The notes beneath the pieces were generated by a model. The model was not told where the DNA came from. It worked only from the letters and a program-made list of their open reading frames with translations, and searched no databases. Positions 3,174-61,376 of a stretch of 64,000 nucleotides of DNA are shown in pieces. Origin of the DNA: a virus (lineage: Duplodnaviria; Caudoviricetes); IMG/VR virus record IMGVR_UViG_3300024346_000004, one strand, 5' to 3'. Both the position numbers and the translations under genes were made by a program. The first letter of the stretch is position 1; every line of letters starts with the position of its first letter.

Positions 3174-3713
3174 ATGTTCAAATTTATTTCATTCTATCCA
3201 CAAGTTAATAAAGAAGAAACAATACCTAATAATAATATATTGTGGATGTGTACTTATAAATTACTTGGAGATCAAATTCAGATCCCATTCGAGTTATTAC
3301 ACTTTTTGAATTCTTGTGATTGTCCATTACCTGTAAAGCATTATTTAGAACAAATGGACTATTATGATCTGAATATTGAATTTAACTCTGATTATCAAAA
3401 GCAATATTGTATGTATGATGATGACGATATTATATTAATTGTAAATATCAGAGCTTTACATGTTAACGAAAAGAAACTGAAAATTGACGTTCCATCTACA
3501 TTAGCTACTAAATTACTAACATTGATGAATTTATCAATGGATGGAATTTTACATTCAGAAAAGATGCAAAAGAGAATTCTAACGATGATGGGTGACTCTG
3601 ATGCATCTTTTATATATTCCGATGATGTAATGGAATATTTAGCTTCTTTAGAAGAGCTATGCGAACATTGTATGCTTTATGAATGTAATGTTATGTGGTC
3701 GCAGTCTGAGTAA
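3174..3713 (+). CDS. hypothetical protein, paralog of 43017..43568
   Basis: Colinear similarity, including N-terminal F.P...N[IV]LW and C-terminal L..L[ED].LCxxCxxYExxVM. Confidence 0.65.
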   Translation: MFKFISFYPQVNKEETIPNNNILWMCTYKLLGDQIQIPFELLHFLNSCDCPLPVKHYLEQMDYYDLNIEFNSDYQKQYCMYDDDDIILIVNIRALHVNEKKLKIDVPSTLATKLLTLMNLSMDGILHSEKMQKRILTMMGDSDASFIYSDDVMEYLASLEELCEHCMLYECNVMWSQSE

Positions 3714-4611
3714 GCAAATATCTTTCAGACTCCAAAGCTGCCATACATCCTGAACCTGCTGATGTTATTGCTTGTTTATAATGTTTATCTGCAACATCCC
3801 CGCAAGCAAATAATCCTGGAATATTAGTTTTTGTGTTAACAGTAGAAATATATCCATCAGATTCTACAATGTTAAAATGCTTCACTAATGATGAATTAGG
3901 TATATTTCCAATTGCTACAAAAACACCACTTACTGATAATAATGATTCTTTTTCAAGAACATCATTATGTAGGATCACAGCATTTACTTTATCATCTCCA
4001 ATAATTTGCTTGATTACAGTATTTTCATACACAGTAATATTCTCTGTATTGAAAACCTTATTCACCATAATTTTAGATGCTTTATAGGATGAGGAACGAT
4101 TAATAAGCTGAACAGAAGAACAGATTTTACTAAGATACAAGGCTTCTTCCATAGCAGTATCACCAGCACCCACTACTACTACATTTTTGCCTTTGTAGAA
4201 AAATCCATCACAGGTAGCACAAGATGTAACTCCTCTGCCTAAAAATTCAGACTCTCCAGGCACAGATAACCATTTAGGAGAAGCACCAGTACAAAAAATA
4301 ACAGATTTATATTCTTCAGTAATTCCATCTGATGTTACTAAAAATTTATCACCTTGTTTTTCTAATTCTGAAACATCTTGATAAATCATTCTAGTACCAA
4401 ACCTTAATGCTTGTTGTTCCATTTCATTCATCAAGTCTGGCCCTAAAATCCCATCCTTAAAACCTGGGTAATTTTCTACTTCTGTGGTGTTCATTAATTG
4501 ACCACCTTGCATAAAACCTGTATATAACACTGGACTTAAATTAGCCCTAGAACAATAGATGGCAGCTGTATATCCAGCTGGTCCACTACCAATAATTGCG
4601 ATATTTTCCAT
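3691..4611 (-). CDS. trxB: thioredoxin-disulfide reductase
   Basis: IIGSGPAGYTAA FAD motif, CATCDG redox centre, VVVGAGDTA NADPH motif, GLFACGDV. Confidence 0.96.
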   Translation of the reverse strand: MENIAIIGSGPAGYTAAIYCSRANLSPVLYTGFMQGGQLMNTTEVENYPGFKDGILGPDLMNEMEQQALRFGTRMIYQDVSELEKQGDKFLVTSDGITEEYKSVIFCTGASPKWLSVPGESEFLGRGVTSCATCDGFFYKGKNVVVVGAGDTAMEEALYLSKICSSVQLINRSSSYKASKIMVNKVFNTENITVYENTVIKQIIGDDKVNAVILHNDVLEKESLLSVSGVFVAIGNIPNSSLVKHFNIVESDGYISTVNTKTNIPGLFACGDVADKHYKQAITSAGSGCMAALESERYLLTQTATT

Positions 4612-4618
4612 ACTAAAT

Positions 4619-4627
4619 ATTGTACCA
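4619..4627 (-). promoter_or_regulatory. extended -10 (TG-G-TACAAT) 7 nt before the trxB ATG; leaderless transcript
   Basis: Direct sequence; no SD. Confidence 0.55.
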
Positions 4628-4643
4628 AATTCTTAGCAACAGT

Positions 4644-4668
4644 AGGAAATAATAAGAATAAAGAAGAA
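4644..4668 (+). promoter_or_regulatory. putative phage late promoter AGG-N18-AGAA
   Basis: AGG 34 nt before ATG 4678; motif recurs about 10 times in the window. Confidence 0.65.
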
Positions 4669-4677
4669 CTTTTAGAT

Positions 4678-5118
4678 ATGTGGTATAAAATTGCTCAACA
4701 AAATTTTCAAAATATAGCTGACACAACCTCTCCGACACATGTTTCTGGAGGTGGTAATGCTGGATTTTCTGTCGATTATCCTACAGCACAAAATATTAAA
4801 AAGTCCTTAGATTCACATCAGCCATACCAATTCACTACAACAGATGGTAAAAAATTCTTAGTATTACATGGCAACTATTCTAATGGTGTAGAATATTTTG
4901 ATGTTGGTGGAACTAGTATCGCTGAACAAGATCTAGCACAATGGATGAGAAATAACGGCATGGATCCTACTGTTACACAAATATTAGCTTGTGGAGTAGG
5001 CAATGTTAATCCAGCTACAGGTTTACATCCAGCTATTGATATTACTGGTATAACTAATCTTAGTATCCCTACTACCCCACCAGCCGATACAAATCCAGTT
5101 ATGGTTGGAGTAAGCTAA
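4678..5118 (+). CDS. MWY-leader protein, possible caspase-like (His-Gly/Ala-Cys) peptidase
   Basis: Starts MWYKIAQ; FLVLHG...QILACG dyad pattern. Confidence 0.5.
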   Translation: MWYKIAQQNFQNIADTTSPTHVSGGGNAGFSVDYPTAQNIKKSLDSHQPYQFTTTDGKKFLVLHGNYSNGVEYFDVGGTSIAEQDLAQWMRNNGMDPTVTQILACGVGNVNPATGLHPAIDITGITNLSIPTTPPADTNPVMVGVS

Positions 5119-5798
5119 TGATCGATTACATTACTTTTTATGATAAAAATATTAGAACTTCCAAAAAAGTAAAAGAAATATTCAAATCATTAAGCGAAGA
5201 TCATGATTTCGGACTTGAATTACCAAAATTACCATATTCTCATTCTGCATTAGAGCCTGTTATTGATGCAGCTACAATGAAATTACATCACGACAAACAT
5301 CATAAAAAATATGTAGATAAAATGAATGAGCTTCTTGGTAACAGTGATAAGACTTTAGTTGAATTATTACAAGATCCTAAAGATGTAAAAGATAAAGAAG
5401 CATTTTTAGATAATGCTGGTGGTCATTTTAACCATTCTTATTTCTGGATTACAATGTCCCCTGAAATGAATCAAAAACCATCTGGAAAACTTGCAGATAA
5501 TATTGATAAACAGTTTGGAAGTTTTGATAAGTTTAAAAAAGAATTTATTGAAACGGGAGTCAAGCATTTTGGGTCTGGATGGGTATGGCTTTGTGTTAAT
5601 GATGGTAAATTAAAAATACAAAGTTTTGATAATCAATCTAATCCATACATTGAAAAATGTGGGATTCCTGTTTTGGGATGTGACGTATGGGAACATGCAT
5701 ATTATCTCAAATATCAGAATAATAGAGAGAAATACATTACATCTTGGTTTAAAGTAGTAAATTGGGACTTTATTTCAAAAAAATATAACGGAGAATAA
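5118..5798 (+). CDS. sodA: Mn-type superoxide dismutase with ~30 aa N-terminal extension
   Basis: LPKLPY..ALEP, HHDKHH, NAGGHFNH, GSGWVWL, NQ.NP, DVWEHAYY; GG and Gln residues favour Mn type. Confidence 0.92.
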   Translation: MIDYITFYDKNIRTSKKVKEIFKSLSEDHDFGLELPKLPYSHSALEPVIDAATMKLHHDKHHKKYVDKMNELLGNSDKTLVELLQDPKDVKDKEAFLDNAGGHFNHSYFWITMSPEMNQKPSGKLADNIDKQFGSFDKFKKEFIETGVKHFGSGWVWLCVNDGKLKIQSFDNQSNPYIEKCGIPVLGCDVWEHAYYLKYQNNREKYITSWFKVVNWDFISKKYNGE

Positions 5799-5799
5799 T

Positions 5800-6324
5800 A
5801 TGGATCGTATTGCAACATTAAATAATCTAAACAATGTTATCAATTCTTTAGAATCAAAGGGTAAATATACTTTAGCATCTCAGGTACAAGAAGTATTTGA
5901 AAAAGTAGCTCAAGCAGATATGTCTAGAAAAGATTTTTTATCTAAAGGTGTTAATTGGGCTGCTGGTCTTGGAATGGCCGGTGGTGCTGGGGCTTTAGTT
6001 AAGGACACTATGGACAAAGCTAAGGATAAACAAGATATTCTTAATCAAATGGCAGAACATGGTTATAGATTAGGTATGGGCATGAGAATTAATGTTGCTG
6101 GATCTGGCGTTAGAAATTGGCAAAGATTCCTCAATGACCACTTTGATGGCAGACTAGATGATGATGGACGTTTTGGACAATCTACTATGCTTGTTACTAA
6201 GAACTTCCAAAAAGCTCATGGTATTACTCCAGATGGTGCTGTTGGTCCTGAAACTATGAAAGCAGCATTAAGTCTTCTAGAAGAAAATATGGAAGATTCA
6301 GAAGATCTTCTTGGAATGGAATAA
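5800..6324 (+). CDS. long-leader protein with Tat-like motif and peptidoglycan-binding domain
   Basis: Leader ending EKVAQ; MSRKDFL plus Gly/Ala hydrophobic stretch; VRNWQRFLN...DGRFGQST...FQKAHGITPDGAVGPET (PG_binding_1). Confidence 0.8.
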   Translation: MDRIATLNNLNNVINSLESKGKYTLASQVQEVFEKVAQADMSRKDFLSKGVNWAAGLGMAGGAGALVKDTMDKAKDKQDILNQMAEHGYRLGMGMRINVAGSGVRNWQRFLNDHFDGRLDDDGRFGQSTMLVTKNFQKAHGITPDGAVGPETMKAALSLLEENMEDSEDLLGME

Positions 6325-6326
6325 AG

Positions 6327-6695
6327 ATGAATCTTATTACAAATCTATTAACTTTACATAATCAACTTAAAGTTTATCATTGGCAAACTAGATCTTACGC
6401 TGCTCATATGGCATTTGGTGGAGCTTATGATGCTCTAACATTGCTTATTGATCAATTTATCGAAGTGTTCCAAGGTAAGAATGGTATGTTAAAAGCACAG
6501 AATAACTTTACCATCACTCTTAGAAATCTAAATGGCGATGAAGATGTTACTAAATTCATTGAAGCATTTTTAGATTATCTTATGGGACCTTTAGTAAATG
6601 GTCTAGATACTGCTAAGGATACAGATCTCATGAATATTAGAGATGAAATGTCCGCAGAGCTAAATAAACTGAAATATTTACTTACACTCAGCTAA
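6327..6695 (+). CDS. ferritin/Dps-like four-helix protein (DUF5856-like)
   Basis: QLKVYHWQTRSYAAHMAFG..YD....ID.FIE..QG; NIRDEM...NKLKYLLTL. Confidence 0.8.
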   Translation: MNLITNLLTLHNQLKVYHWQTRSYAAHMAFGGAYDALTLLIDQFIEVFQGKNGMLKAQNNFTITLRNLNGDEDVTKFIEAFLDYLMGPLVNGLDTAKDTDLMNIRDEMSAELNKLKYLLTLS

Positions 6696-6698
6696 AGT

Positions 6699-6722
6699 AA
6701 AGGCCCCATAAAAGGGGCCTTT
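6699..6722. terminator. bidirectional intrinsic terminator
   Basis: aaaggcccc-ataaaa-ggggccttt between convergent genes. Confidence 0.8.
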
Positions 6723-6727
6723 ATTAT

Positions 6728-7108
6728 TTAAAAGTTTCCACAACTTCCACAACCGCTAGAACCTGATGAATCTCCCCCAACGCTAAAAGATTGACCACAG
6801 CCACATCCTTTTTTCATATTAGGATTAGTAACTTTAAATCCATTTTGGTCTTTAATAAAATCAATTTCAGATCCGTTGACTATTTTCATAATATCTGTAT
6901 TGACAACTATTTTGATTTTGTCATCTAAAATAATATCATCAATTTCAGGTACGAATTCTTCTAAGCCTAAATGATACTTATATCCAGCACAACCACCAGC
7001 CGATACACCTAATCTGACACATAATTCCATATCAGGATGTGACTCCATAATAGAAATGATCTCTTCAGATGCTGCTTCGGTAATATTAATTTTTAATTCT
7101 TCTTCCAT
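6728..7108 (-). CDS. iscA: HesB/IscA A-type Fe-S cluster carrier
   Basis: ITEAA, RLGV..GGCAGYKY, NPN...CGCGQSF; extra C-terminal CGSC. Confidence 0.9.
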   Translation of the reverse strand: MEEELKINITEAASEEIISIMESHPDMELCVRLGVSAGGCAGYKYHLGLEEFVPEIDDIILDDKIKIVVNTDIMKIVNGSEIDFIKDQNGFKVTNPNMKKGCGCGQSFSVGGDSSGSSGCGSCGNF

Positions 7109-8366
7109 GCATAAACTCCTGGTATCTAACTACTTCATATTCTTGCAACGAATGACTATAGATATTATCACCAATACAAATAAAACCGATAACATTTGCA
7201 GCTAAAACACTTTCTAAATTAGCTTTACTACATATGACAAAAGGATTCTTCACTGCGCCATATTTTCTTAAAACTAAATATTTTTCTAAATTATTATATT
7301 GTTCCATAAGTGTTTCATTAAGCGTAACTCCTACTTCGAAATTACCACCTAATATATTCAAAACACTATATAAATATTTGATATCAATTTCACTAAAGAA
7401 AAACCAATCAACATCCTTATTATCTAACATTATATTTCTGTATATTGACATACTAGATTTATTACTATATAAATCATTAACTGTATGCTGATTAATCATA
7501 GTAAATTTAGATATAAATTTATAAGGACAAGTTATTTCTTTTCTATCTCTGTTAACTAATGCTTCCCAGTTATGAAGTGTATTAACCGCATCTTCATAAG
7601 TGACATCAAATTCAAGATCTATTAAAGTAGGCTTGATTAATAATCTTTTAAAAGGAGACAATAAGTTAAATTCTTTATTAGAGATACTTATTACTGGTTT
7701 ATTTTTTACATGTAACCAATAGATTAAGTTGTTTGGTAAAGTGATAATCAACTTAGCCTTCTCTGCAAATAAAGCTACACCTTCCGCACTACTGAATTTA
7801 TCCCTCAAATTAATGAAATTAGGGTACTTTATATCATTATATCCCTGATTACCTTGACCGATTAAAATTACTTTGTTATTAGGGAAAAATTCACATACTT
7901 CATTTAAAAATTCTGGCCAATATTTCCATTTATTTTCATCAGGAGTGGAATGATTAGAAGATGGTTGAAATAAAATAAAATCTTCGTAATCTGGTAAATA
8001 TTCATAAGCTCTTGATGAATAATTATATGTGTCTAATAATGATAAATCTTCACCGCCAGATACACTTAATTGAATTGATGTATATTCTCTATCTTGTGGC
8101 AAATTAAAATAAACTTTGTATTCTTTTATTTGTGTTTCTGTTTTCCAAGGAGAACATAGATTTACAAAACTCTGCCAATAAATAGATTCTGCGGGTGTGA
8201 ATAAATAATGCTCACAATTATCAACGAAATCTTGAGCTAAAATAAATTCTTTTAGTTCTGGAAATGGACCTAAAAGAATAATATTTCTAATGTTTCTTCT
8301 TTTAGCATTGGACAGGGAAACAAATACATCTCCCCATCCTCCACCAGTAATACCCCAATTATCCAT
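7086..8366 (-). CDS. GT-B glycosyltransferase, GT9 (heptosyltransferase)-like; paralog of 37780..38985
   Basis: N-terminal GGWGD, ILFQP.S....K.W..W, VILIG, INLRDK...ITLPN. Confidence 0.65.
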   Translation of the reverse strand: MDNWGITGGGWGDVFVSLSNAKRRNIRNIILLGPFPELKEFILAQDFVDNCEHYLFTPAESIYWQSFVNLCSPWKTETQIKEYKVYFNLPQDREYTSIQLSVSGGEDLSLLDTYNYSSRAYEYLPDYEDFILFQPSSNHSTPDENKWKYWPEFLNEVCEFFPNNKVILIGQGNQGYNDIKYPNFINLRDKFSSAEGVALFAEKAKLIITLPNNLIYWLHVKNKPVISISNKEFNLLSPFKRLLIKPTLIDLEFDVTYEDAVNTLHNWEALVNRDRKEITCPYKFISKFTMINQHTVNDLYSNKSSMSIYRNIMLDNKDVDWFFFSEIDIKYLYSVLNILGGNFEVGVTLNETLMEQYNNLEKYLVLRKYGAVKNPFVICSKANLESVLAANVIGFICIGDNIYSHSLQEYEVVRYQEFMHGRRIKN

Positions 8367-9282
8367 TTAAGATTTCTAATTTAGTAGCATGAATTACAGG
8401 ACGAACTAAAGTTAATTTCATAGCTTCATCTCTCATTACTTCATCTGTAAAATCTGCTTCGGACTTTACAGAATCAGTGTGGACAATTAATCTAAATCCC
8501 GCATCCTTGATTAGTTTTTGATATAGATAAAGAAGAGATGCGGATTTATTTTCTAAGACAAAGAAAGCCTTAAGATGAGAAGATAACCATTCTTGACCAC
8601 ATATTCCATCGCTCTTTGTAACAACCCAGTTCTCAGGATGCAAAAGAGCTAAATCATATCTAGTATCTAAAGATTTTACAGATTGGACAGCTGTTTCATC
8701 ATTAGTAGCTTTAATAACAACTTCTCCATTGAAGAAATCAATAATATTTTTAATACTAGACAATGGTTCTGAAATTGATCTCTTGTAAATATCCAAAGCA
8801 GAATCAAGAATGTTTTGTGCTTCTTCTAATTTATTTTCATCTAATAACTCAAGAAGTTTATAATGATCATCTAATCTTCCTGCTAGTGATTTAATATATT
8901 CTTCTACTTCTAATTCAGACATATAAATCATAGGGGATTCAGAATTATTAATTAGCTTAGGCTCTACAACACTAAATTTACATTCTGATTCAATTTGTAT
9001 TCTAAAATATCCCCAAGCTGCATGATCAATATTTAGAAATAATTCATGATGCAGATTACCGTTTTCAGCAAATAAATCTGTAGGAACAATCTGAAATGGG
9101 TTGTGTACATTAGTATCGCAAAGTCCTAGATTTACTGTTAAACCAGCTAATCTTTGTGCAATATGTACGAGATTTTTATTATCGTCAATCCAAGAGTAAA
9201 TACCAGCAGTTAGAGCTTTTTCAGTATCTATGGATTGACTATTCTTTTTCTTGAAGCTTACGCCATTACTAATATTGTTCAT
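8359..9282 (-). CDS. hypothetical protein
   Basis: 307 aa ORF with TATAAT 6 nt upstream of ATG. Confidence 0.7.
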   Translation of the reverse strand: MNNISNGVSFKKKNSQSIDTEKALTAGIYSWIDDNKNLVHIAQRLAGLTVNLGLCDTNVHNPFQIVPTDLFAENGNLHHELFLNIDHAAWGYFRIQIESECKFSVVEPKLINNSESPMIYMSELEVEEYIKSLAGRLDDHYKLLELLDENKLEEAQNILDSALDIYKRSISEPLSSIKNIIDFFNGEVVIKATNDETAVQSVKSLDTRYDLALLHPENWVVTKSDGICGQEWLSSHLKAFFVLENKSASLLYLYQKLIKDAGFRLIVHTDSVKSEADFTDEVMRDEAMKLTLVRPVIHATKLEILNG

Positions 9283-9300
9283 AGATATATTATACAGAGT

Positions 9301-9336
9301 TAAAAAGGAATGAGCAAGGTTAGACTTACCTTGCTC
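9301..9336 (-). terminator. intrinsic terminator closing the putative ncRNA
   Basis: 9-bp stem GAGCAAGGT/ACCTTGCTC (9312-9320/9328-9336) followed on the minus strand by ATTCCTTTTT. Confidence 0.7.
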
Positions 9337-10050
9337 TTATGATCTATTTAATGGGATTACATCACTCGCAAATATGATTTGCCCATTTGTCCACTATTAC
9401 TAGTAAGATCATACAGTGTCCTATTTATACTGGAGGCGGCCCAGTCTAATGTTGGTTTCCTAGTTATATCAGAACGTATACTCAATTGCGATGAATAAGG
9501 TTCTGAATTAAGATTTACACTTTTTTATTTATAGTTCCTGAATGTATTTCTTAAATGTTTCGACAGTCACTGCTTACTTCCAACACGAAACGAGTCTATT
9601 TATGGGTTACTAAATACGCTGATATTGCGATTACATACCCTACTCTACAAGAATGTGCTCGTTTTGTCACTTCTTCACAGAAATATGACACATTCCATGC
9701 CTTTCACTTTCACGAAGTTACCAGGCGTGATTTTGAGATTAATACGACTGTTATATCGTTTCACCTCTAATCATGCATAAAAGCCTTTTGCCGTGTACAT
9801 CAGACCTTTATACTACTCTTACTCTTCAGATTTCGATGTTCGCACAAATTAAGTATGATTGCTGCCACCTTAATTTACATCTTCAATCATAGTTCCACAT
9901 TCTATTGCAAAACCTTAGAGAGATGAGCTTGCTTGAATGACCCTGAGTTGGGCGGGAGCTGTAGAGAATAGCTTTATCCCTTTTTTCACACTCTACTATC
10001 TTACGATGTCAAGCCACCGAGAATCACTTATTCAATTTTCAAAGTACAAC
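9301..10050 (-). ncRNA. putative large structured ncRNA (~740 nt; GOLLD/ROOL size class, family unassigned)
   Basis: No credible ORF in an otherwise gene-dense genome; visibly higher GC; TATAAT upstream; terminator downstream; many perfect helices and GNRA loops (see findings). Confidence 0.7.
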
Positions 10051-10059
10051 ACTATTATA
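10029..10059 (-). promoter_or_regulatory. -10 box TATAAT (10059-10054) followed by boxA-like GTACTTTGAAAATTGAATA (10047-10029)
   Basis: Direct sequence; resembles the rRNA-operon antitermination boxA (GTTCTTTGAAAA type). Confidence 0.55.
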
Positions 10060-10081
10060 CATTATTCTTATTAAAATGCAT

Positions 10082-10429
10082 CTACACTTTTAAATGTTTT
10101 TTGCTATTAACACGAACAATATATTCGCTCCATCGTCTAGCCTCTTCTCCTCCGTACATTTTCCAAATCCAAGCTTCTTTTCTTTCTGGATCTGAAGGTA
10201 TTCTAAATCTATTCTTAGCAGTGTATTCGTGAATATCAATAATATCTGATAACTTCATCATATTTTGCATTGCTAATATTCTAGATAATTCCAACTGTTT
10301 TGAAGAACAATAATTTCTATTATTTCTTCCCCAATCATAACCTTCTTGAGCAATTTTTTGAACATTAGATGGAACAATGAATTTTTCAGATAAATTTTCC
10401 GCTGTTCTATAGAGCTTATTATTGTACAT
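10082..10429 (-). CDS. phage head-associated-like small domain protein
   Basis: P..V...A..G..W...WKMYGGEEARRW resembles the 'AW.LWGGDAG.RW' domain of phage head-morphogenesis regions; starts MYNNKLYRTA; late-type promoter upstream. Confidence 0.55.
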   Translation of the reverse strand: MYNNKLYRTAENLSEKFIVPSNVQKIAQEGYDWGRNNRNYCSSKQLELSRILAMQNMMKLSDIIDIHEYTAKNRFRIPSDPERKEAWIWKMYGGEEARRWSEYIVRVNSKKHLKV

Positions 10430-10525: not shown

Positions 10526-10828
10526 ATGCTTAATAAATTAGCTTCTATTGCTAACGATTTAGATAATTATGGTATGTACAAGGAAGCGAATGAAATCACT
10601 TCTGTAATGAAGAGACTGTCCGGAATTTTTGATAAAAACGAAGATGTTGATTATCTTGCCATGGCTCATGCACTTAATAATGTTGCTAAAAATGAAGGTT
10701 GGCAAAACTTTAGAGAAAATTATTATGTTGATGGCCAATTCAAAGCTCAACAGTTAGCTAGAGAATTAGAACAAGTAAAAGCAAAAAATCTTTCTGAAGC
10801 GGAAGAAATGCTTAGATCGGAAGAATAA
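10526..10828 (+). CDS. long-leader hypothetical protein
   Basis: LASIANDLDNYGMYKEANEITSVMKRLS leader. Confidence 0.75.
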   Translation: MLNKLASIANDLDNYGMYKEANEITSVMKRLSGIFDKNEDVDYLAMAHALNNVAKNEGWQNFRENYYVDGQFKAQQLARELEQVKAKNLSEAEEMLRSEE

Positions 10829-11416
10829 ATGGCTACTATTGAAGATTTAGCAGATTTAGCATTAGAATTAGATAATAATAGTGCTCATAGATTAGCAGAT
10901 AAAATTACTTTAGCAATGAACAAATTTGCTAATGAAGATTGGGACCATGAATACGATATGGTCAGAAATGAAATGGAAACTGCTAAAAGAGCTATTGAAG
11001 GCATTGAAGATGTAGTGGGCGAAGATGGCGAAGGGAATTTGATGGCTTGGGTACAGTCTAAAATTTCTAATGCTGTTCAAATGCTAAAAGGTGTCTCTGA
11101 TTATTTAGTCAGCGAAGAAACTGTTGGTCAGAAAACAGCTGCTAAAAATGATGGCAAGAAACTAAACAAGCCTTTCAGAACTCCGGGTGGTCCTAAAAAG
11201 TTCTCTGTTTATGTAAAGAACGATAAGGGTAATATCATTAAGGTTAATTTTGGCTCGCCAGACATGGAAATTAAAAGAGACGACCCAGAACGTAGAAAAA
11301 ATTTCAGAGCCAGGCATAATTGTGACAATCCAGGTAAAAAGTGGAAAGCTCGTTGGTGGTCATGTCGCAATTGGGAAGCTGGGAGATCTGTATCTGACAA
11401 TCTTAAGGGTAAATAA
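10829..11416 (+). CDS. long-leader protein with DHE..M/AWVQSKI module and basic C-terminal DUF6321-like domain
   Basis: KLNKPFRTPGGPKKFSVYVKN...VNFG...RRKNFRARHNC...ARWWSC.W, a recurrent domain in large phages. Confidence 0.75.
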   Translation: MATIEDLADLALELDNNSAHRLADKITLAMNKFANEDWDHEYDMVRNEMETAKRAIEGIEDVVGEDGEGNLMAWVQSKISNAVQMLKGVSDYLVSEETVGQKTAAKNDGKKLNKPFRTPGGPKKFSVYVKNDKGNIIKVNFGSPDMEIKRDDPERRKNFRARHNCDNPGKKWKARWWSCRNWEAGRSVSDNLKGK

Positions 11417-12117
11417 TGAGAAAGTTTCATTATTTATATAAAATTACTAACAATATCAATGGTAAATATTATATTGGAAGACATTCAACAGATAATATAA
11501 ATGATGATTATTTTGGGAGTGGCATTGGAATTATCAATGCAATCAATAAATATGGCAAAGAAAATTTCAGTAAAGAAATTTTATATCAATGCGAAACTAC
11601 AGAAGAGCTTTGGGATCTCGAAAGAAAAGTTGTAAATGCTGAAGTTGTAAATGATAAAAATTCCTACAATATGGCATTTGGCGGCGGAAATCATTTGAAA
11701 GAAATGAAACAAAATGATTATAAATCATTTTTAGAACATCAAAGTAATGCCGGTAAAAAAGGCGGTAAAGCTATAATTGAAAAATATGGAAAAGAATGGC
11801 ATGCAAAAGGTGGTGCTAAATCTAGAAGTATTTTAAATGCCAAATTTTTATACCATTTGATAACTCCAAATAATGATGTTATTGAATTGAGTGCATTAAA
11901 TTTACGAACATATTGTGAACAAAATAATCTCAATTATCAAACTCTCATCAGTAATCAAGATAAAACTTTTTCAAAAGGCTCATGTGCAGGGTATTGTTTG
12001 ATTAACATATCTAAGCCTTATGAAAATAAAACAGATAAAAAAGTATATATCCAAAATGCTCTAAACAGACCAAGATATACCTGCCCTATTTGTGATAAAG
12101 ACAATCTTGACGGCTGA
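11416..12117 (+). CDS. GIY-YIG (Seg-like) free-standing homing endonuclease; C-terminal C2H2 finger interrupted by TGA (frame reopens to 12195)
   Basis: YLYKITNNINGKYYIGRHST...Y.GSG...KYGKENF.KEIL...E...YN. Confidence 0.85.
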   Translation: MRKFHYLYKITNNINGKYYIGRHSTDNINDDYFGSGIGIINAINKYGKENFSKEILYQCETTEELWDLERKVVNAEVVNDKNSYNMAFGGGNHLKEMKQNDYKSFLEHQSNAGKKGGKAIIEKYGKEWHAKGGAKSRSILNAKFLYHLITPNNDVIELSALNLRTYCEQNNLNYQTLISNQDKTFSKGSCAGYCLINISKPYENKTDKKVYIQNALNRPRYTCPICDKDNLDG

Positions 12118-12204
12118 AATCTAACCATCCATATGACAGCAAAACATCTATGGACAAAAGAACAAGTTATAAACTTTAAAAATAGTACAAAGTAGAATAT
12201 TTTA

Positions 12205-13011
12205 ATGAATTACAAGCAATACCTTAAACTAGCATCAAATTTAGATAAGACTGGTCAATATAAAAGATCAGATTATATTTTTAACTTGGTTTTATCACAA
12301 ACACAAGATGATGAAGAAAATTACGATGACGAAGATGATTTAGAAGATGATGACAATACTCCTCATGAGATAATTCATCCGACACCTGTATTTTTTAATG
12401 CTGCCACTAATCAACCAGTAATGCATGAAGGAAAATATTTAGCAGCTTTACCTTTTGATCAAGATCTTCCTGAAATAAGAGGAAAAGTTAAAGCTATGAC
12501 TGGTTTAGAAAATCTAACAATTGTCAGAATACCAGTAAATATTTTAATTGTTGAATGGGTGCGTTCAGAATCAGATGCTCGCAAAACTCAAGAATTAGAA
12601 GATGCTTTAGCTTCCGGAATAGAAGATATTGGTGATTTCGGATTCTTGTTAATGATCAATGAAAACATTTTAGATGTCAAAGGTAAAGATTTAGTCTTTT
12701 CTTCTGAATCTGATGCATATGGTTTTGGAAGAGTTATAGCTGAACATTATAAAAGAGCCGGTAGAGAGATGGAAATATCTGTTGCTCCTGTCGCAGTGTC
12801 TTTAATGGATGCAAAAGAAGAAGGAATGTCATTGCCTGAAATGTATGGTGATGATGAATTTATCTTTGTTAGCAATTCATCATTCAAAGCTACTGAAATA
12901 CCAGAAACTATGGCTGATTTGAAAGATGAATTATTCCATTTATCAATGGTAAGAACATATACAGTTGATAGACTACAAAGAGAAAAACTCGGCGACTATG
13001 ATTTTGAATAG
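12205..13011 (+). CDS. long-leader acidic hypothetical protein
   Basis: LKLASNLDKTGQYKRSDYIFNLVLSQ, then a D/E-rich tract. Confidence 0.7.
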   Translation: MNYKQYLKLASNLDKTGQYKRSDYIFNLVLSQTQDDEENYDDEDDLEDDDNTPHEIIHPTPVFFNAATNQPVMHEGKYLAALPFDQDLPEIRGKVKAMTGLENLTIVRIPVNILIVEWVRSESDARKTQELEDALASGIEDIGDFGFLLMINENILDVKGKDLVFSSESDAYGFGRVIAEHYKRAGREMEISVAPVAVSLMDAKEEGMSLPEMYGDDEFIFVSNSSFKATEIPETMADLKDELFHLSMVRTYTVDRLQREKLGDYDFE

Positions 13012-13024
13012 AAAGCATAAATAG

Positions 13025-13050
13025 AAAAGAGGACTGAAAAGTCCTCTTTT
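13025..13050. terminator. bidirectional intrinsic terminator
   Basis: aaaagaggact-gaaa-agtcctctttt. Confidence 0.85.
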
Positions 13051-13051
13051 T

Positions 13052-13561
13052 TTATCTCACCAAATAATAGTCCCAATATTCGCTATCTTTTTCTTTATAT
13101 GAGCACAATAAATGATAAAAAGAATATACAGGCAGGTTAGGTTTAGAAAGTAGTCTCATTCCGCTTTTTTCTAGCGTTTTTCCAGCTTTCTTGATATTAC
13201 AGGATCTACAACAAGTGACAAGATTATCCCAAGTATGATTTCCACCTAAATGCCTGGGATAAACATGGTCTAAAGTTAAATCAATATTTCTAATACCGCA
13301 ATATTGACATGTGTAATTATCTCTGCCATAAATTCCACCTCTACTAACTTTAAAGCTGGTGTTATGTTTACGGCGGACATTGTGTTTTAATCTTATGACA
13401 GAAGGAACTGAGTAGCGATCACCATTACCAGAATAAAAATATTTATGATCCTTATAATGTAATGTTTCTGCTTTGTCATTTATAAGCAATTTAATAGCTC
13501 TAGGCAAATCACAAATATTTAAAGGTTCATAATCCAAATTAAGTAATAATACTCTGTTCAT
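13052..13561 (-). CDS. HNH endonuclease (McrA-like)
   Basis: VLLLN.DYEPL, RDNYTCQYCG, TLDHVYPRHLGG..TWDNLVTCC..CN..K; TTGACA and TACAAT boxes upstream. Confidence 0.92.
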   Translation of the reverse strand: MNRVLLLNLDYEPLNICDLPRAIKLLINDKAETLHYKDHKYFYSGNGDRYSVPSVIRLKHNVRRKHNTSFKVSRGGIYGRDNYTCQYCGIRNIDLTLDHVYPRHLGGNHTWDNLVTCCRSCNIKKAGKTLEKSGMRLLSKPNLPVYSFYHLLCSYKEKDSEYWDYYLVR

Positions 13562-13613
13562 AAAATTCTTTCAGATAGCATATTGTATACCAATATAATG
13601 GCAATGTCAAATA

Positions 13614-13638
13614 AGGTTACAAATAATTTTACATAGAA
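13614..13638 (+). promoter_or_regulatory. putative phage late promoter AGG-N18-AGAA
   Basis: AGG 34 nt before ATG 13648. Confidence 0.65.
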
Positions 13639-13647
13639 AAAATAAGT

Positions 13648-13923
13648 ATGGATACTAATAACTTACTCAATGATTTAAATCATATCATTACATTACTGGA
13701 AAATGATGGAAATATTGTTGTTGCTAATGATTTACAAGATGTATTTGTAAAGATAGCAAAGAAGAAACCAGCAAAGAAAAATAATGTTCCTAATGATCCA
13801 GAACTTTATTCTCGTTGTAAATCAGAAGTAAAGAAGAAATTTAAAATTTGGCCTTCTGCTTATGGATCTGCAGCTTTGGTTCGCCTTTATAAACAAAGAG
13901 GCGGAACTTATAAAAAGAGTTAA
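13648..13923 (+). CDS. long-leader small basic protein (DUF5872-like)
   Basis: Leader ending FVKIAK; P.DPELY...K.EVKKKFK.WPSAY.S..LV..YK.RGG.Y. Confidence 0.7.
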   Translation: MDTNNLLNDLNHIITLLENDGNIVVANDLQDVFVKIAKKKPAKKNNVPNDPELYSRCKSEVKKKFKIWPSAYGSAALVRLYKQRGGTYKKS

Positions 13924-13928
13924 ATATC

Positions 13929-14306
13929 ATGAGTAAATGGATTAAAGTAGATGAAGATACTGAATTCACTAAAGAAGCTGATTTAAAAGATTGGTTTAAA
14001 GAAAAATGGGTAGATGTCTCAAGACCTAAGAAAAAAGGTAAGGGATATGAACCTTGTGGAAGAGGCGATACATCAAAAGGTAAAAAGCCTGTATGTACCC
14101 CTGCTAATAAGGCGAAAAACTTAACAGATAAAGAACGTAAAACTAGAATCCGCCAAAAAAGAAAAAAAGAAAAAGAACCTAATCCTGATAAAAAACCTAA
14201 CACCACCACATATACAGAAAATGCGGGTGGTAAATCTAATGTATCAAATAATCACAATATTAAATTTGTTGGTAGTACGATTGATCTTAACAACGAAAGT
14301 AAATAA
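13929..14306 (+). CDS. small basic protein (L..WFKEKWVD..CGR..P.C.P domain)
   Basis: Domain recurrent in large phages; N-terminus MSKWIKV shared with 15505. Confidence 0.7.
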   Translation: MSKWIKVDEDTEFTKEADLKDWFKEKWVDVSRPKKKGKGYEPCGRGDTSKGKKPVCTPANKAKNLTDKERKTRIRQKRKKEKEPNPDKKPNTTTYTENAGGKSNVSNNHNIKFVGSTIDLNNESK

Positions 14307-58862: not shown

Positions 58863-61376
58863 ATGTGGTATCAAAAAATAGTAGAAGCTGGTGCGTTAGA
58901 TGAGTTGGCTGGTGGAATGGATACTAGTAAATCACCAGAAGATATATTATGGGAAATACGACATAATTATTCTATTTCAAAATTACCAAATTTTGAACAT
59001 CTTTATAAATATCTTCTTGACTTGATTGACAACAAGTATACGAGTGATTATTTAACATCTGTTATAACACACTTGATTTATATGTATTCGAAAGATGCTG
59101 AAACTGTACATAGAGCTAATAGATTAGTTCCGTTAATGATAAAGAATAATAAAATTTCTCAAAACGAAGAAATGATGTTATTGCCTGACACTTTCTCACA
59201 TATGGGTAGTACATTAGAGACACATAACACTGTATATAATTTCGGATATAATAAACTCTTAGCATACACAAAAGAAGGCATTGATCTTCCAAAGCGTGTT
59301 CGTATATATATAATGATGAATATGGACACACTATCTAGTTCAAGCATGCAACAGAGTGAAGCAAGAACAGAAATTAAAAAATATATTACGGATAAAGATC
59401 CTATGTATGAATTTCTTAATGCTGATAAATATTCTGGAGAACAAATACTTAAAAATATTATTGATAACATACAATCAGATGCTGGTAGGCAACTTTATTA
59501 TGATGTTGTCCAATATTCTGGATTACCTATTGACGATTATTTATATTTATTAGATGAAGCTCACAATGAAAGAGTAATGGATGATCTACCCAAAGTTTAT
59601 GATCTTTTAATAAATGATCAAAAATTTGATAAATATATAGAATATTTAGATAAAAATAAAAATAAATTTAGTCCAGAGCATTTTGAAAATAGATTCGTTG
59701 GTGCTTTCAAATACGGAATGACTTATTTTATGGGTGATTTTTGGTATGAAATATTTAAAAACAATAGACAAATTATAAATGAAAAAATTTATCCTTCTTG
59801 TGAATATTATTACAAACCTTATTTACACAGATTAGGTGTTGGACCGAAAGAAGAAATAATCAAAGAATACATAAAAGCTTCATTGGAAAATAAAGATTTA
59901 GCAAATAGGAAATTTAAAGAAATACCCACAAAAGAAGAAATTGATGCTTATGTGCAAAAAAACTCTGAAAAACTTAATTCATATCAGTCTCAACGAGCTC
60001 AAAATACACAAACTCAAAATACAACACCACAAAGTGCTAATTCTCCTATACTCGATATATTTCAAAAAAATCTACAAAATGGATATATTGAAAAACATGA
60101 TATTACTGGAGAATATGAAAAATTACTAAATGATATTCTAAATTCATTTGGATTCAATTCAGATGATCAAAATATCATAAGTGATATTAAATCAAGATTA
60201 AAGATTTATGTATTTAAAAATTCTGAATTTTATAAAGATTTATTAAATACATCACTTCAAGAATATGGTTTTATCACACCTACATTAATGAACTCTTGTG
60301 GATATTTTGTTCCTAGATTTTCGGATAACAATAATGGTCCTTCAATATTTATCAACGAATTTATATCTGAAGACTATGTAAATAGTGACAATATTATTAA
60401 CAATCTTGGAATAACCAAAGACATGATTAATATGTCTACAGCTGCTCATGAATTAGCCCATTTAGCAGATTATGTTATCAAAGGCGGATCAGAAGTATTC
60501 AGTAATGTAGATCCTAAAACATCCTTAAAAGAAGGCGAAGCATACAATCAATCTAGATTGTATTTATCAGACATTAGAGAAATTGTTGCAAGAGTATATG
60601 GAAATACTTCTTATATGATTGAAATTCTGCATAAAAGAATTGAAGAAATGAGAACATCGGAAATCATTAGAAAAGCTGTTGTAGAAGAATTATCAGATAT
60701 GCTGATGAGTAATGAAGCAAGCTGGTTGAATGCTACTCCTATGGTATCTGAACAAAAACTTCAAGAATGGGCAGAAAAAAGATTTGGACCTTATGAAAAT
60801 TCTGAACAACCTTATACCCAAGCTACTGAAGATTACCTAAAACAAAAACAACTAGCAATTAAATTTTATGAAGAAGCTGGTAAGGTCAATCGAGAAGACA
60901 TAAAAAAAGCTACTATCGAAGAAATACAATCATTAGAAGATCAAGCTGAAATATTAAAAACAAGAGTAAGTGAAGATAGCGAAGAATATAAAAAACTTCA
61001 AGAAGACATCAAAAAGTTAAAATTAAAAATCAGAAATATTGAAGCGGGTGCATTTGATCATGATATTTATACTATCGTTAAATCTGTAGCGTCTTATATA
61101 GCATTTAAAGATATCAAAATAACTAATGAAATAGCTGCTGATCCTAATTATGTTTCTCCAATATCAATTAGAAAAGACCAGATGGCCGCAAATACAACGG
61201 GAGATACAACACCACTTTCAAATCAAGAACTTAAAACTATGAGAGATTTTGATTTAGGACAGGTCGCTCAAGGTACAGAAGGTGGTAAAACTTTAAAAGA
61301 ACCTAAACCTTCATTTATGTCATATGATATCTATAATCCTAAATGGAGAGAAGAATATCCAGACACATTCAAATAA
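58863..61376 (+). CDS. MWY-leader large protein with zincin metallopeptidase (HExxH) domain
   Basis: MWYQKIVEA; GYF...IFIN...TAAHELAHLADY...Y...EIVAR. Confidence 0.7.
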   Translation: MWYQKIVEAGALDELAGGMDTSKSPEDILWEIRHNYSISKLPNFEHLYKYLLDLIDNKYTSDYLTSVITHLIYMYSKDAETVHRANRLVPLMIKNNKISQNEEMMLLPDTFSHMGSTLETHNTVYNFGYNKLLAYTKEGIDLPKRVRIYIMMNMDTLSSSSMQQSEARTEIKKYITDKDPMYEFLNADKYSGEQILKNIIDNIQSDAGRQLYYDVVQYSGLPIDDYLYLLDEAHNERVMDDLPKVYDLLINDQKFDKYIEYLDKNKNKFSPEHFENRFVGAFKYGMTYFMGDFWYEIFKNNRQIINEKIYPSCEYYYKPYLHRLGVGPKEEIIKEYIKASLENKDLANRKFKEIPTKEEIDAYVQKNSEKLNSYQSQRAQNTQTQNTTPQSANSPILDIFQKNLQNGYIEKHDITGEYEKLLNDILNSFGFNSDDQNIISDIKSRLKIYVFKNSEFYKDLLNTSLQEYGFITPTLMNSCGYFVPRFSDNNNGPSIFINEFISEDYVNSDNIINNLGITKDMINMSTAAHELAHLADYVIKGGSEVFSNVDPKTSLKEGEAYNQSRLYLSDIREIVARVYGNTSYMIEILHKRIEEMRTSEIIRKAVVEELSDMLMSNEASWLNATPMVSEQKLQEWAEKRFGPYENSEQPYTQATEDYLKQKQLAIKFYEEAGKVNREDIKKATIEEIQSLEDQAEILKTRVSEDSEEYKKLQEDIKKLKLKIRNIEAGAFDHDIYTIVKSVASYIAFKDIKITNEIAADPNYVSPISIRKDQMAANTTGDTTPLSNQELKTMRDFDLGQVAQGTEGGKTLKEPKPSFMSYDIYNPKWREEYPDTFK

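Follow-up and report, generated by a model that had tools for sequence, protein, structure and literature searches.

The RNA gene and its neighbourhood

The window analysed here is a stretch of 64,000 nt (G000:C1:46574-110573) from an IMG/VR virus record of 166 kb, estimated by CheckV to be 46% complete, whose relatives are contigs of 316-379 kb from lake and river metagenomes, going by the record names. Its largest ORF-free gap, 799 nt at 9283-10081 (the runners-up measure 313 and 269 nt), lies between a hypothetical gene of 307 aa downstream (8359..9282, minus strand) and a 115-aa gene without a family match upstream (10082..10429, minus strand). On the minus strand at 9301..10047 the gap carries a gene for a large ornate RNA of ~748 nt, present once in the record, for which alignment, covariation, homology to Rfam GOLLDs and a tree point to descent from GOLLD. 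A sequence-only reading had singled out this gap for its lack of ORFs and its raised GC content, and both hold (36.8% GC against 31.7% for the window). The folding z-score (20 shuffles) was -3.0 for the minus strand and -2.5 for the plus strand; since both strands fold similarly, folding energy leaves the strand undecided, and the minus strand was assigned because of the promoter, the terminal U-run and homology.

Both borders proposed from the sequence, a TATAAT box and a terminator, are present. The -10 box (10054..10059, minus strand) suggests a dedicated sigma70-type promoter, its position is conserved across homologues, and transcription may be inferred to start at ~10047. The -35 element of the window promoter is poor, and the promoter scanner did not list it, but a perfect one (TTGACA-16/17-TATAAT) occupies the same position in six homologues (L014, L063, L065, L083, L061 and L051). 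The first transcribed nucleotides (10037..10047, minus strand) contain a boxA-like leader motif, possibly a NusB/S10 site for rRNA-type antitermination and help in folding. It matches the boxA consensus (PMC5725501) with at most two mismatches in 20 of 24 members, the mean being 1.9 compared with 3.5 in shuffles. We put the chance that the motif is genuine at about even, because it lies at the inferred start or at most 4 nt from it and departs from one fixed consensus position (position 3, which is A in all members). At the other end, the hairpin and U-run at 9301..9336 (minus strand) correspond to the last stem of GOLLD, P27, here lengthened to 8-9 bp; all eight of eight pairs covary, the terminator scanner reported a match, and P27 probably also serves as an intrinsic terminator. 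In phage phiCbK and in the divergent homologue L113 (see below), a terminator-like hairpin is separate and lies downstream of P27.

The flanking genes vary among homologous loci. Small genes of 115-138 aa, apparently of the same type as the 115-aa gene, precede the RNA in many of them, but such a gene is not obligatory, and several loci carry other inserted genes. Nor is the 307-aa gene an obligatory neighbour, as the RNA lies ~18 kb from it in the sister phage G003 and was not found in the flank examined at three loci of the 307-aa protein (L052, L054 and L058). The nearest tRNA gene in the record is ~82 kb from the RNA gene, and 49 loci of 2-12 kb yielded no free-standing tRNA, the sole call being the tRNA embedded in the G003 orthologue.

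Several further features of the region were observed. Small proteins that contain short basic domains rich in Trp and Cys are encoded in a cluster (window 10082-10429 and 10526-14306) that is syntenic with the RNA in G001, G002 and G003. For one of them, of 195 aa, 73 viral relatives were found; this RNA is missing within 6 kb of most, and the neighbourhoods of the 73 added no RNA copies to those already known. A GIY-YIG endonuclease gene (11416-12117) is absent or replaced in near-identical strains, marking a hot spot for mobile elements: L003 is without the gene, L004 has a NUMOD-type gene and L006 has an IS605 TnpB gene nearby. On the downstream side, a group of redox and iron genes at 3691-7108 (thioredoxin reductase, Fe/Mn superoxide dismutase, DUF5856 and an Fe-S scaffold protein, assigned by sequence and by Pfam of homologues) keeps its order across the clade. 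Outside the window, several GC-enriched ORF-free gaps of 300-680 nt surround five tRNA genes (G000:C1:138822-157390) and may hold more RNAs.

Homologues, covariation and fold

With the downstream 307-aa protein as bait, ~70 loci were gathered, and iterated nhmmer searches located the RNA in nearly all those having enough upstream DNA. The upstream 115-aa protein, used in the same way, returned near-identical strains only, and a blastn comparison of GenBank phages with the window RNA, L067 and L113 gave no significant match. After removal of near-copies, the alignment contained 24 sequences of 736-814 nt with a mean identity of ~61%; L088 is a 25th member. RNAalifold gave 106 pairs, 61 of them with double changes, and pseudoknots added by a helix scan raised the model to 139 pairs, in which 98.8% of cells were paired and 72 pairs showed double (compensatory) changes, counts that lean upward since the structure was derived from the same alignment on which it was scored. 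Controls with slid partners had ~41% of cells paired and 9-21 double-change pairs, and none of 500 shuffles reached the observed value. L113 provided an independent check, with both 5' pseudoknot loops changed jointly with their partners. The homologues conserve base pairs rather than an ORF: internal ORFs of at least 45 aa were at unrelated positions and strands or missing in the alignment, which has many indels. Comparative analysis thus confirms the structured RNA of ~740 nt that had been proposed, and with it a non-coding RNA gene at 9301-10047 in a jumbo phage from a lake.

The 13 helices listed in the sequence-only reading are all complementary, and 11 of them also occur in the comparative model; compensatory changes were counted for most, and 9699-9702/9723-9726, 9351-9355/9382-9386 and the subgroup-specific 9469-9475/9500-9506 were judged by eye. 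Two were not supported: the loop 9961-9967 pairs in homologues with 9642-9648 instead of forming 9961-9966/9991-9996, and 9854-9861/9884-9891 lacks conservation, in contrast to 9878-9881/9835-9838 in the same place.

The elements that follow are all on the minus strand and are given from the 5' end of the RNA. The first hairpin (10004..10019) presents a loop, 10014-10009, that pairs with 9936-9931 to form the 5' pseudoknot, of 6 bp, two with double changes and 100% paired; this loop pairing is entirely changed yet kept in L113, L231 and L232. The loop of the second hairpin (9954..9980), 9967-9961, finds its partner in 9648-9642, immediately ahead of the tRNA relic described below; this helix is 99.4% paired with one double change in the family, and L113 has a different complementary sequence pair. 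The rest of the 5' domain (9699..9953) consists of P3, a multibranch at 9928-9815, a long hairpin at 9813-9775 (8 of 12 pairs covary) and the hairpins 9773-9728 and 9726-9699, and segments of it match the GOLLDs of L131 and phiCbK by HMM. Two of its loops can form a kissing interaction (9711..9795; 9795-9792 with 9714-9711, 4 bp), whose first three pairs are present in 23 of 24 rows, the exception being misaligned by one column, and whose fourth is GC in 17, UA in 4 and AU, GU and GA in one each. Judged from its position before P13, this interaction probably corresponds to the L10-L12 bridge, which is intermolecular in solved GOLLDs, with the qualification that P numbers in the 5' domain are mapped by position only and that intra- and intermolecular contacts read alike in sequence.

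The 3' core comprises P13-P17 and P22-P27 with four pseudoknots, all of its helices being at least 96% paired and most double-changed, and its stems follow the order of the Rfam GOLLD alignments. P13 and P14 (9650..9696), the latter with a loop that has no canonical conserved A-run, are followed by the P15 pseudoknot (9588..9664; 9664-9658 with 9594-9588), which occupies the same place in the Rfam alignments of L113, L124 and L131. The crossing of helices here had been put forward as a candidate pseudoknot, and the homologues bear it out, with seven pairs, three of them double-changed, and 100% of cells paired. P16 (9449..9586; 9586-9580 with 9455-9449) has four of seven pairs double-changed and encloses a remodelled domain, and the P17 pseudoknot (9413..9573; 9573-9568 with 9418-9413) has four of six and is 100% paired. 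The P22 region with the L22-J17/22 pseudoknot (9419..9445) shows one double change. In the P23 multibranch (9339..9412), which includes a GUAA hairpin and P26, six of the seven P23 pairs are double-changed. Finally, the L27-J24/26 pseudoknot (9322..9392; 9392-9389 with 9325-9322) is 100% paired, with one pair CG in 13 and UA in 11. Both the L22-J17/22 and L27-J24/26 pseudoknots have been described in the solved env-38 GOLLD (PMC12286853). Readings of the hairpin 9469-9506 as a group II domain 5 and of a group I P7 were considered and rejected, neither being conserved across homologues by eye.

Descent from GOLLD and remodelling of the 3' half

Rfam, at gathering cut-offs and at E up to 10, gave no match in the window and only short chance matches in nine homologous loci. 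Thus none of the families named beforehand (GOLLD, ROOL, OLE, HEARO, RNase P, tmRNA and group I/II introns) was found in the stretch at E up to 10; ARAGORN called nothing there either, and the GOLLD model RF02032 (gathering cut-off 150 bits) had no match in G000-G002. However, blastn of G003 led to the divergent copy L113, which lies beside the same protein cluster as the window RNA and matches across the whole GOLLD model at 127.9 bits (E 1e-33), below the cut-off. When the conserved 3' motif (P22 and L22-J17/22) was turned into a search pattern, viral contigs yielded L131 and L124, genome contigs yielded L231 and L232, and all four exceed the cut-off (162.6, 200.3, 156.4 and 152.6 bits respectively; the phiCbK GOLLD, as a control, scored 165.3 bits). 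An HMM of the 24 family sequences alone recognized L113 (E 3e-64), L131 (3e-12 and 3e-8), L124 (1e-5) and the phiCbK GOLLD (4e-4) but not ROOL, and the window RNA by itself matched L113 with E 3e-27. Two covariance models of the family, R1 from its first 91 positions (5') and R2 from its last 152 (3'), placed the likeness in both halves: R1 found L113 (45 bits), L232 (41), L231 (35) and L131 (20) with 5' ends in register, and R2 found the P23 multibranch region in five GOLLD loci at 54-88 bits with 3' ends in register, with a weak match of 12.6 bits to the phiCbK GOLLD. The reverse test gave a weaker result: an HMM of three or four reference GOLLDs missed the window copy in G000 and found most other family members.

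In the tree, the window-RNA family formed one clade (100/100) with L113 adjacent, long branches leaving the deeper order unsure. One further pattern scan returned the known copy only, and a motif search of a gapped partial copy of the published GOLLD alignment gave no match, which is not evidence that the variant is absent there. Weak secondary matches in G003 (C1:49092-49228 and 60283-60397; 15 bits with the GOLLD model, 23 bits with R2) are probably due to chance.

The sequence-only reading had offered three affiliations, namely GOLLD-like, ROOL-like or a new class. GOLLD proved right: the RNA is almost certainly a GOLLD-derived structured RNA, judging from these homologies. ROOL was excluded, as RF03087 had no match in G000-G003 (the L. 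salivarius control scored 130.4 bits) and neither the family HMM nor R1 and R2 had a significant match on ROOL. The two RNAs are alike in being large, multi-pseudoknotted phage RNAs with a variable linker and two short motifs similar by eye, the hint on which kinship had been considered, but the ends of ROOL pair in a long closing stem. The new class was unsupported, and on the comparative evidence the RNA is a strongly remodelled GOLLD derivative that Rfam misses. We file it as a GOLLD-derived variant and not as a canonical member because the conserved P18-P21 are missing.

The likenesses to GOLLD are extensive. Both RNAs are phage-encoded and ~740-810 nt long, and both have P13-P17 and P22-P27 in order, the P15, P17, L22-J17/22 and L27-J24/26 pseudoknots and a tRNA slot in J13/15; the 5' domain is homologous to those of the GOLLDs L131, L231 and L232. 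The window RNA differs from GOLLD in its AU-rich domain, its lost bridge motifs, a new pairing to the loop of the P26 extension, a degenerate tRNA, a longer, terminator-like P27, its own promoter and its escape from the Rfam model. It also lies away from tRNA arrays, in or near which GOLLDs are frequently, if not universally, located.

The nearest relative in the tree, L113/L130 of the sister jumbo phage G003 (IMGVR_UViG_3300032116_000001), occupies the same site by the same protein cluster and shares the type of 5' domain and the pseudoknots, the latter with compensatory changes. Unlike the window RNA, L113 keeps canonical P18-P21, the J13/15 GC and a GCAA loop 20; its embedded tRNA is still callable, as tRNA-Arg(UCU), and the RNA is 46% GC. 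Its 5' and 3' flanks are apparently longer: ~180 nt of extra structured-looking sequence precede the first hairpin (L113:1230-1415) and ~200 nt follow P27 and end in the separate terminator-like hairpin (L113:2265-2475), each a possible additional RNA module.

In place of P18-P21, the window RNA has an AU-rich variable domain (9456..9567, minus strand) with two hairpins, the second of which (9469-9506) carries the loop 9491-9485. Across the family this domain is 72-142 nt long, has 22-33% GC and one or two hairpins per member, and is unalignable between subgroups; the same region in L113 has 133 nt and 45% GC. The span from P17 to P22 is 145-150 nt in six reference GOLLDs compared with 84-124 in most family members, two values of 24 (184 and 234) being left out as likely pattern artefacts. 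In the solved env-38 GOLLD, the L14 A-run, the J13/15 GC and GNRA loop 3 form bridges B6, B7 and B1, and the P21 loops form B8 and B9, which join the half-shells (PMC12286853). The A-run is described there as highly conserved in GOLLD, and the six reference GOLLDs have it together with the GC in J13/15 and a GCAA loop 20. By contrast, the L14 A-run (B6) and the L20-J13/15 kissing loop (B7) are absent in all 25 family members; the conserved GNRA loop 3 is lost as well. Some members retain a GNRA loop on P24.

A loop-loop pairing appears to have been gained by this lineage. The proposed lineage-specific kissing loop (9366..9491, minus strand) joins 9491-9486 of the variable domain to 9371-9366 in the loop of the P26 extension, which in reference GOLLDs is mostly of a plain GCAA type. 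Its equivalent has at least five Watson-Crick pairs in 25 of 25 members, and in five of six comparisons the pairing is longer within a subgroup than across subgroups. It occurs in three sequence states, each one clade, indicating about two independent changes, and per-sequence shuffle p values are mostly 0.03-0.14.

The slot in J13/15 has changed as well. Canonical GOLLDs and L113 have an Rfam-detectable tRNA there, which ARAGORN calls tRNA-Arg(UCU) in L113. Homologues of the window RNA have elements of 57-110 nt in the slot, most folding as a cloverleaf with a tRNA D-arm signature, but neither Rfam nor ARAGORN detected a tRNA in the slot among family members, and the anticodon-like loops are only 3-7 nt long and variable. 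In the window RNA, slot homology marks a relic of 38 nt (9603..9640, minus strand) with an acceptor-like stem and one small hairpin; its subgroup has lost the D and T arms while the remainder of the RNA is intact.

Some observations on the other GOLLDs may be added. Just upstream of the canonical GOLLD of L124, which lies in a tRNA array, is a hammerhead-like Rfam match of 24 bits (cut-off 34; L124:7268-7324, minus strand). A divergent permuted tmRNA gene (L230:716-1034) adjoins the phiCbK GOLLD; the phiCbK record annotates neither, listing just the embedded tRNA-Gly. L231 and L232, canonical GOLLDs with embedded tRNAs and the 5' domain type of the window-RNA family, come from two Verrucomicrobiota MAGs, where their contigs are short and could be prophage or mis-binned phage DNA.

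Proposed working of the RNA and its meaning

Comparison of the homologues shows the fold, with five or more long-range pseudoknots, and a homology to GOLLD that covers both halves, as well as the loss of canonical P18-P21 and the decay of the tRNA. The best explanation of the whole, to which we give a probability of about 0.7, is that GOLLD gave rise to a phage RNA that is transcribed independently, acts in trans and has an altered assembly. A sigma70-type host polymerase would produce the RNA abundantly, possibly aided by Nus factors at the boxA-like leader, transcription would end at P27 and the RNA would fold into the GOLLD core. Copies would then join via the 5' kissing loop and the pairing of the variable domain with the P26 extension, the latter replacing the L20-J13/15 bridge. 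The solved GOLLDs are a 14-mer (env-38; PMC12286853) and 10- and 12-mers (Streptococcus agalactiae; reviewed in PMC12990946). A canonical closed 10-14-mer is not expected here because the donors or receptors of B1, B6, B7, B8 and B9 are missing or unconserved, and an altered oligomer, which could be an open ring, a half-shell or something smaller, is likely in view of these sequences. Through its conserved core surfaces, the RNA could be a multivalent scaffold for binding or sequestering host translation machinery in lytic growth, and a GOLLD ribosome pull-down has been cited (PMC12286853). This is favoured over tRNA storage because the tRNA is dispensable in this lineage; as the actual function, however, it is a tentative and rather unlikely proposal. 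That the lineage has given up the closed cage altogether, with the closing module and its partner loops lost, loop 20 rewired and the tRNA decayed in an RNA that is still conserved throughout a clade of lake jumbo phages, has in our estimate somewhat less than an even chance.

The losses in the 3' half could also be those of an ordinary divergent GOLLD in which other sequences supply equivalent contacts and the cage closes as usual, if perhaps with another number of copies. Solved GOLLDs do vary in copy number and helix content, and the S. agalactiae RNA without P9, P11a-c and P21b is still a 12-mer (PMC12990946). Moreover, the variable domain retains a hairpin or two in every family member, and part of the family keeps a GNRA loop on P24. 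Such an account is nevertheless unlikely, as the L14 A-run and the J13/15 GC were lost along with their receptors in 25 of 25 members, and the variable domain has a twofold range of length and is unalignable across subgroups.

The location of the gene bears on a different proposal. The prohead RNA of phi29 multimerises via kissing loops, is much smaller and is bound to the packaging motor. It is mentioned in PMC12990946 and is unrelated to the window RNA, which could resemble it in working principle only, as a multimeric scaffold for head morphogenesis or a packaged RNA. The distance of ~82 kb to the nearest tRNA gene would fit such a virion role, as would the same divergent cluster of small basic proteins beside the RNA in G000, G001, G002 and G003, and GOLLD expression increases during lysis (PMC12286853). 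But the neighbouring genes yielded no terminase, portal or capsid gene, canonical GOLLDs lie among tRNAs, which points to translation, and related phages are expected to be syntenic even without functional linkage, so we consider this role quite unlikely.

It is more doubtful again that the RNA works through the relic in its linker, as a tRNA-mimic carrier or decoy that shields tRNA pools from host anticodon nucleases or is processed out of the RNA. The cloverleaf and D-arm signature in most members, the real tRNAs of canonical GOLLDs and a proposed storage role (PMC12990946) speak for it, but no member is detected as a tRNA by Rfam or ARAGORN, the short anticodon-like loops vary, and the window subgroup dispenses with D and T arms with the other parts intact. 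Scarcely credible is an unrelated new class of RNA sharing only short motifs with GOLLD: Rfam is silent on the window and its close homologues and R2 matches the phiCbK GOLLD weakly, but several Rfam-positive GOLLDs match the window-RNA family collinearly in both halves, the syntenic orthologue L113 is intermediate, and the four 3' pseudoknots follow one another as they do in GOLLD.

To our knowledge, GOLLD belongs to a small number of natural RNAs that assemble into cages without protein, and the main proposals for the use of these cages are that they encapsulate cargo or store the embedded tRNA. The GOLLD-derived clade described here amounts to a natural mutant, with most 3' bridges gone, the tRNA degraded and the remainder under strong pairing constraint, and the sister phage G003 retains the complete version at the same locus, so that comparing the two can show directly which features matter. 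A whole GOLLD lineage is missed by the Rfam model, and the family is thus wider than catalogued. If the closed cage has indeed been abandoned, the function of GOLLD would need neither a closed cage nor tRNA storage, and the RNA would represent a new RNA-only quaternary architecture.
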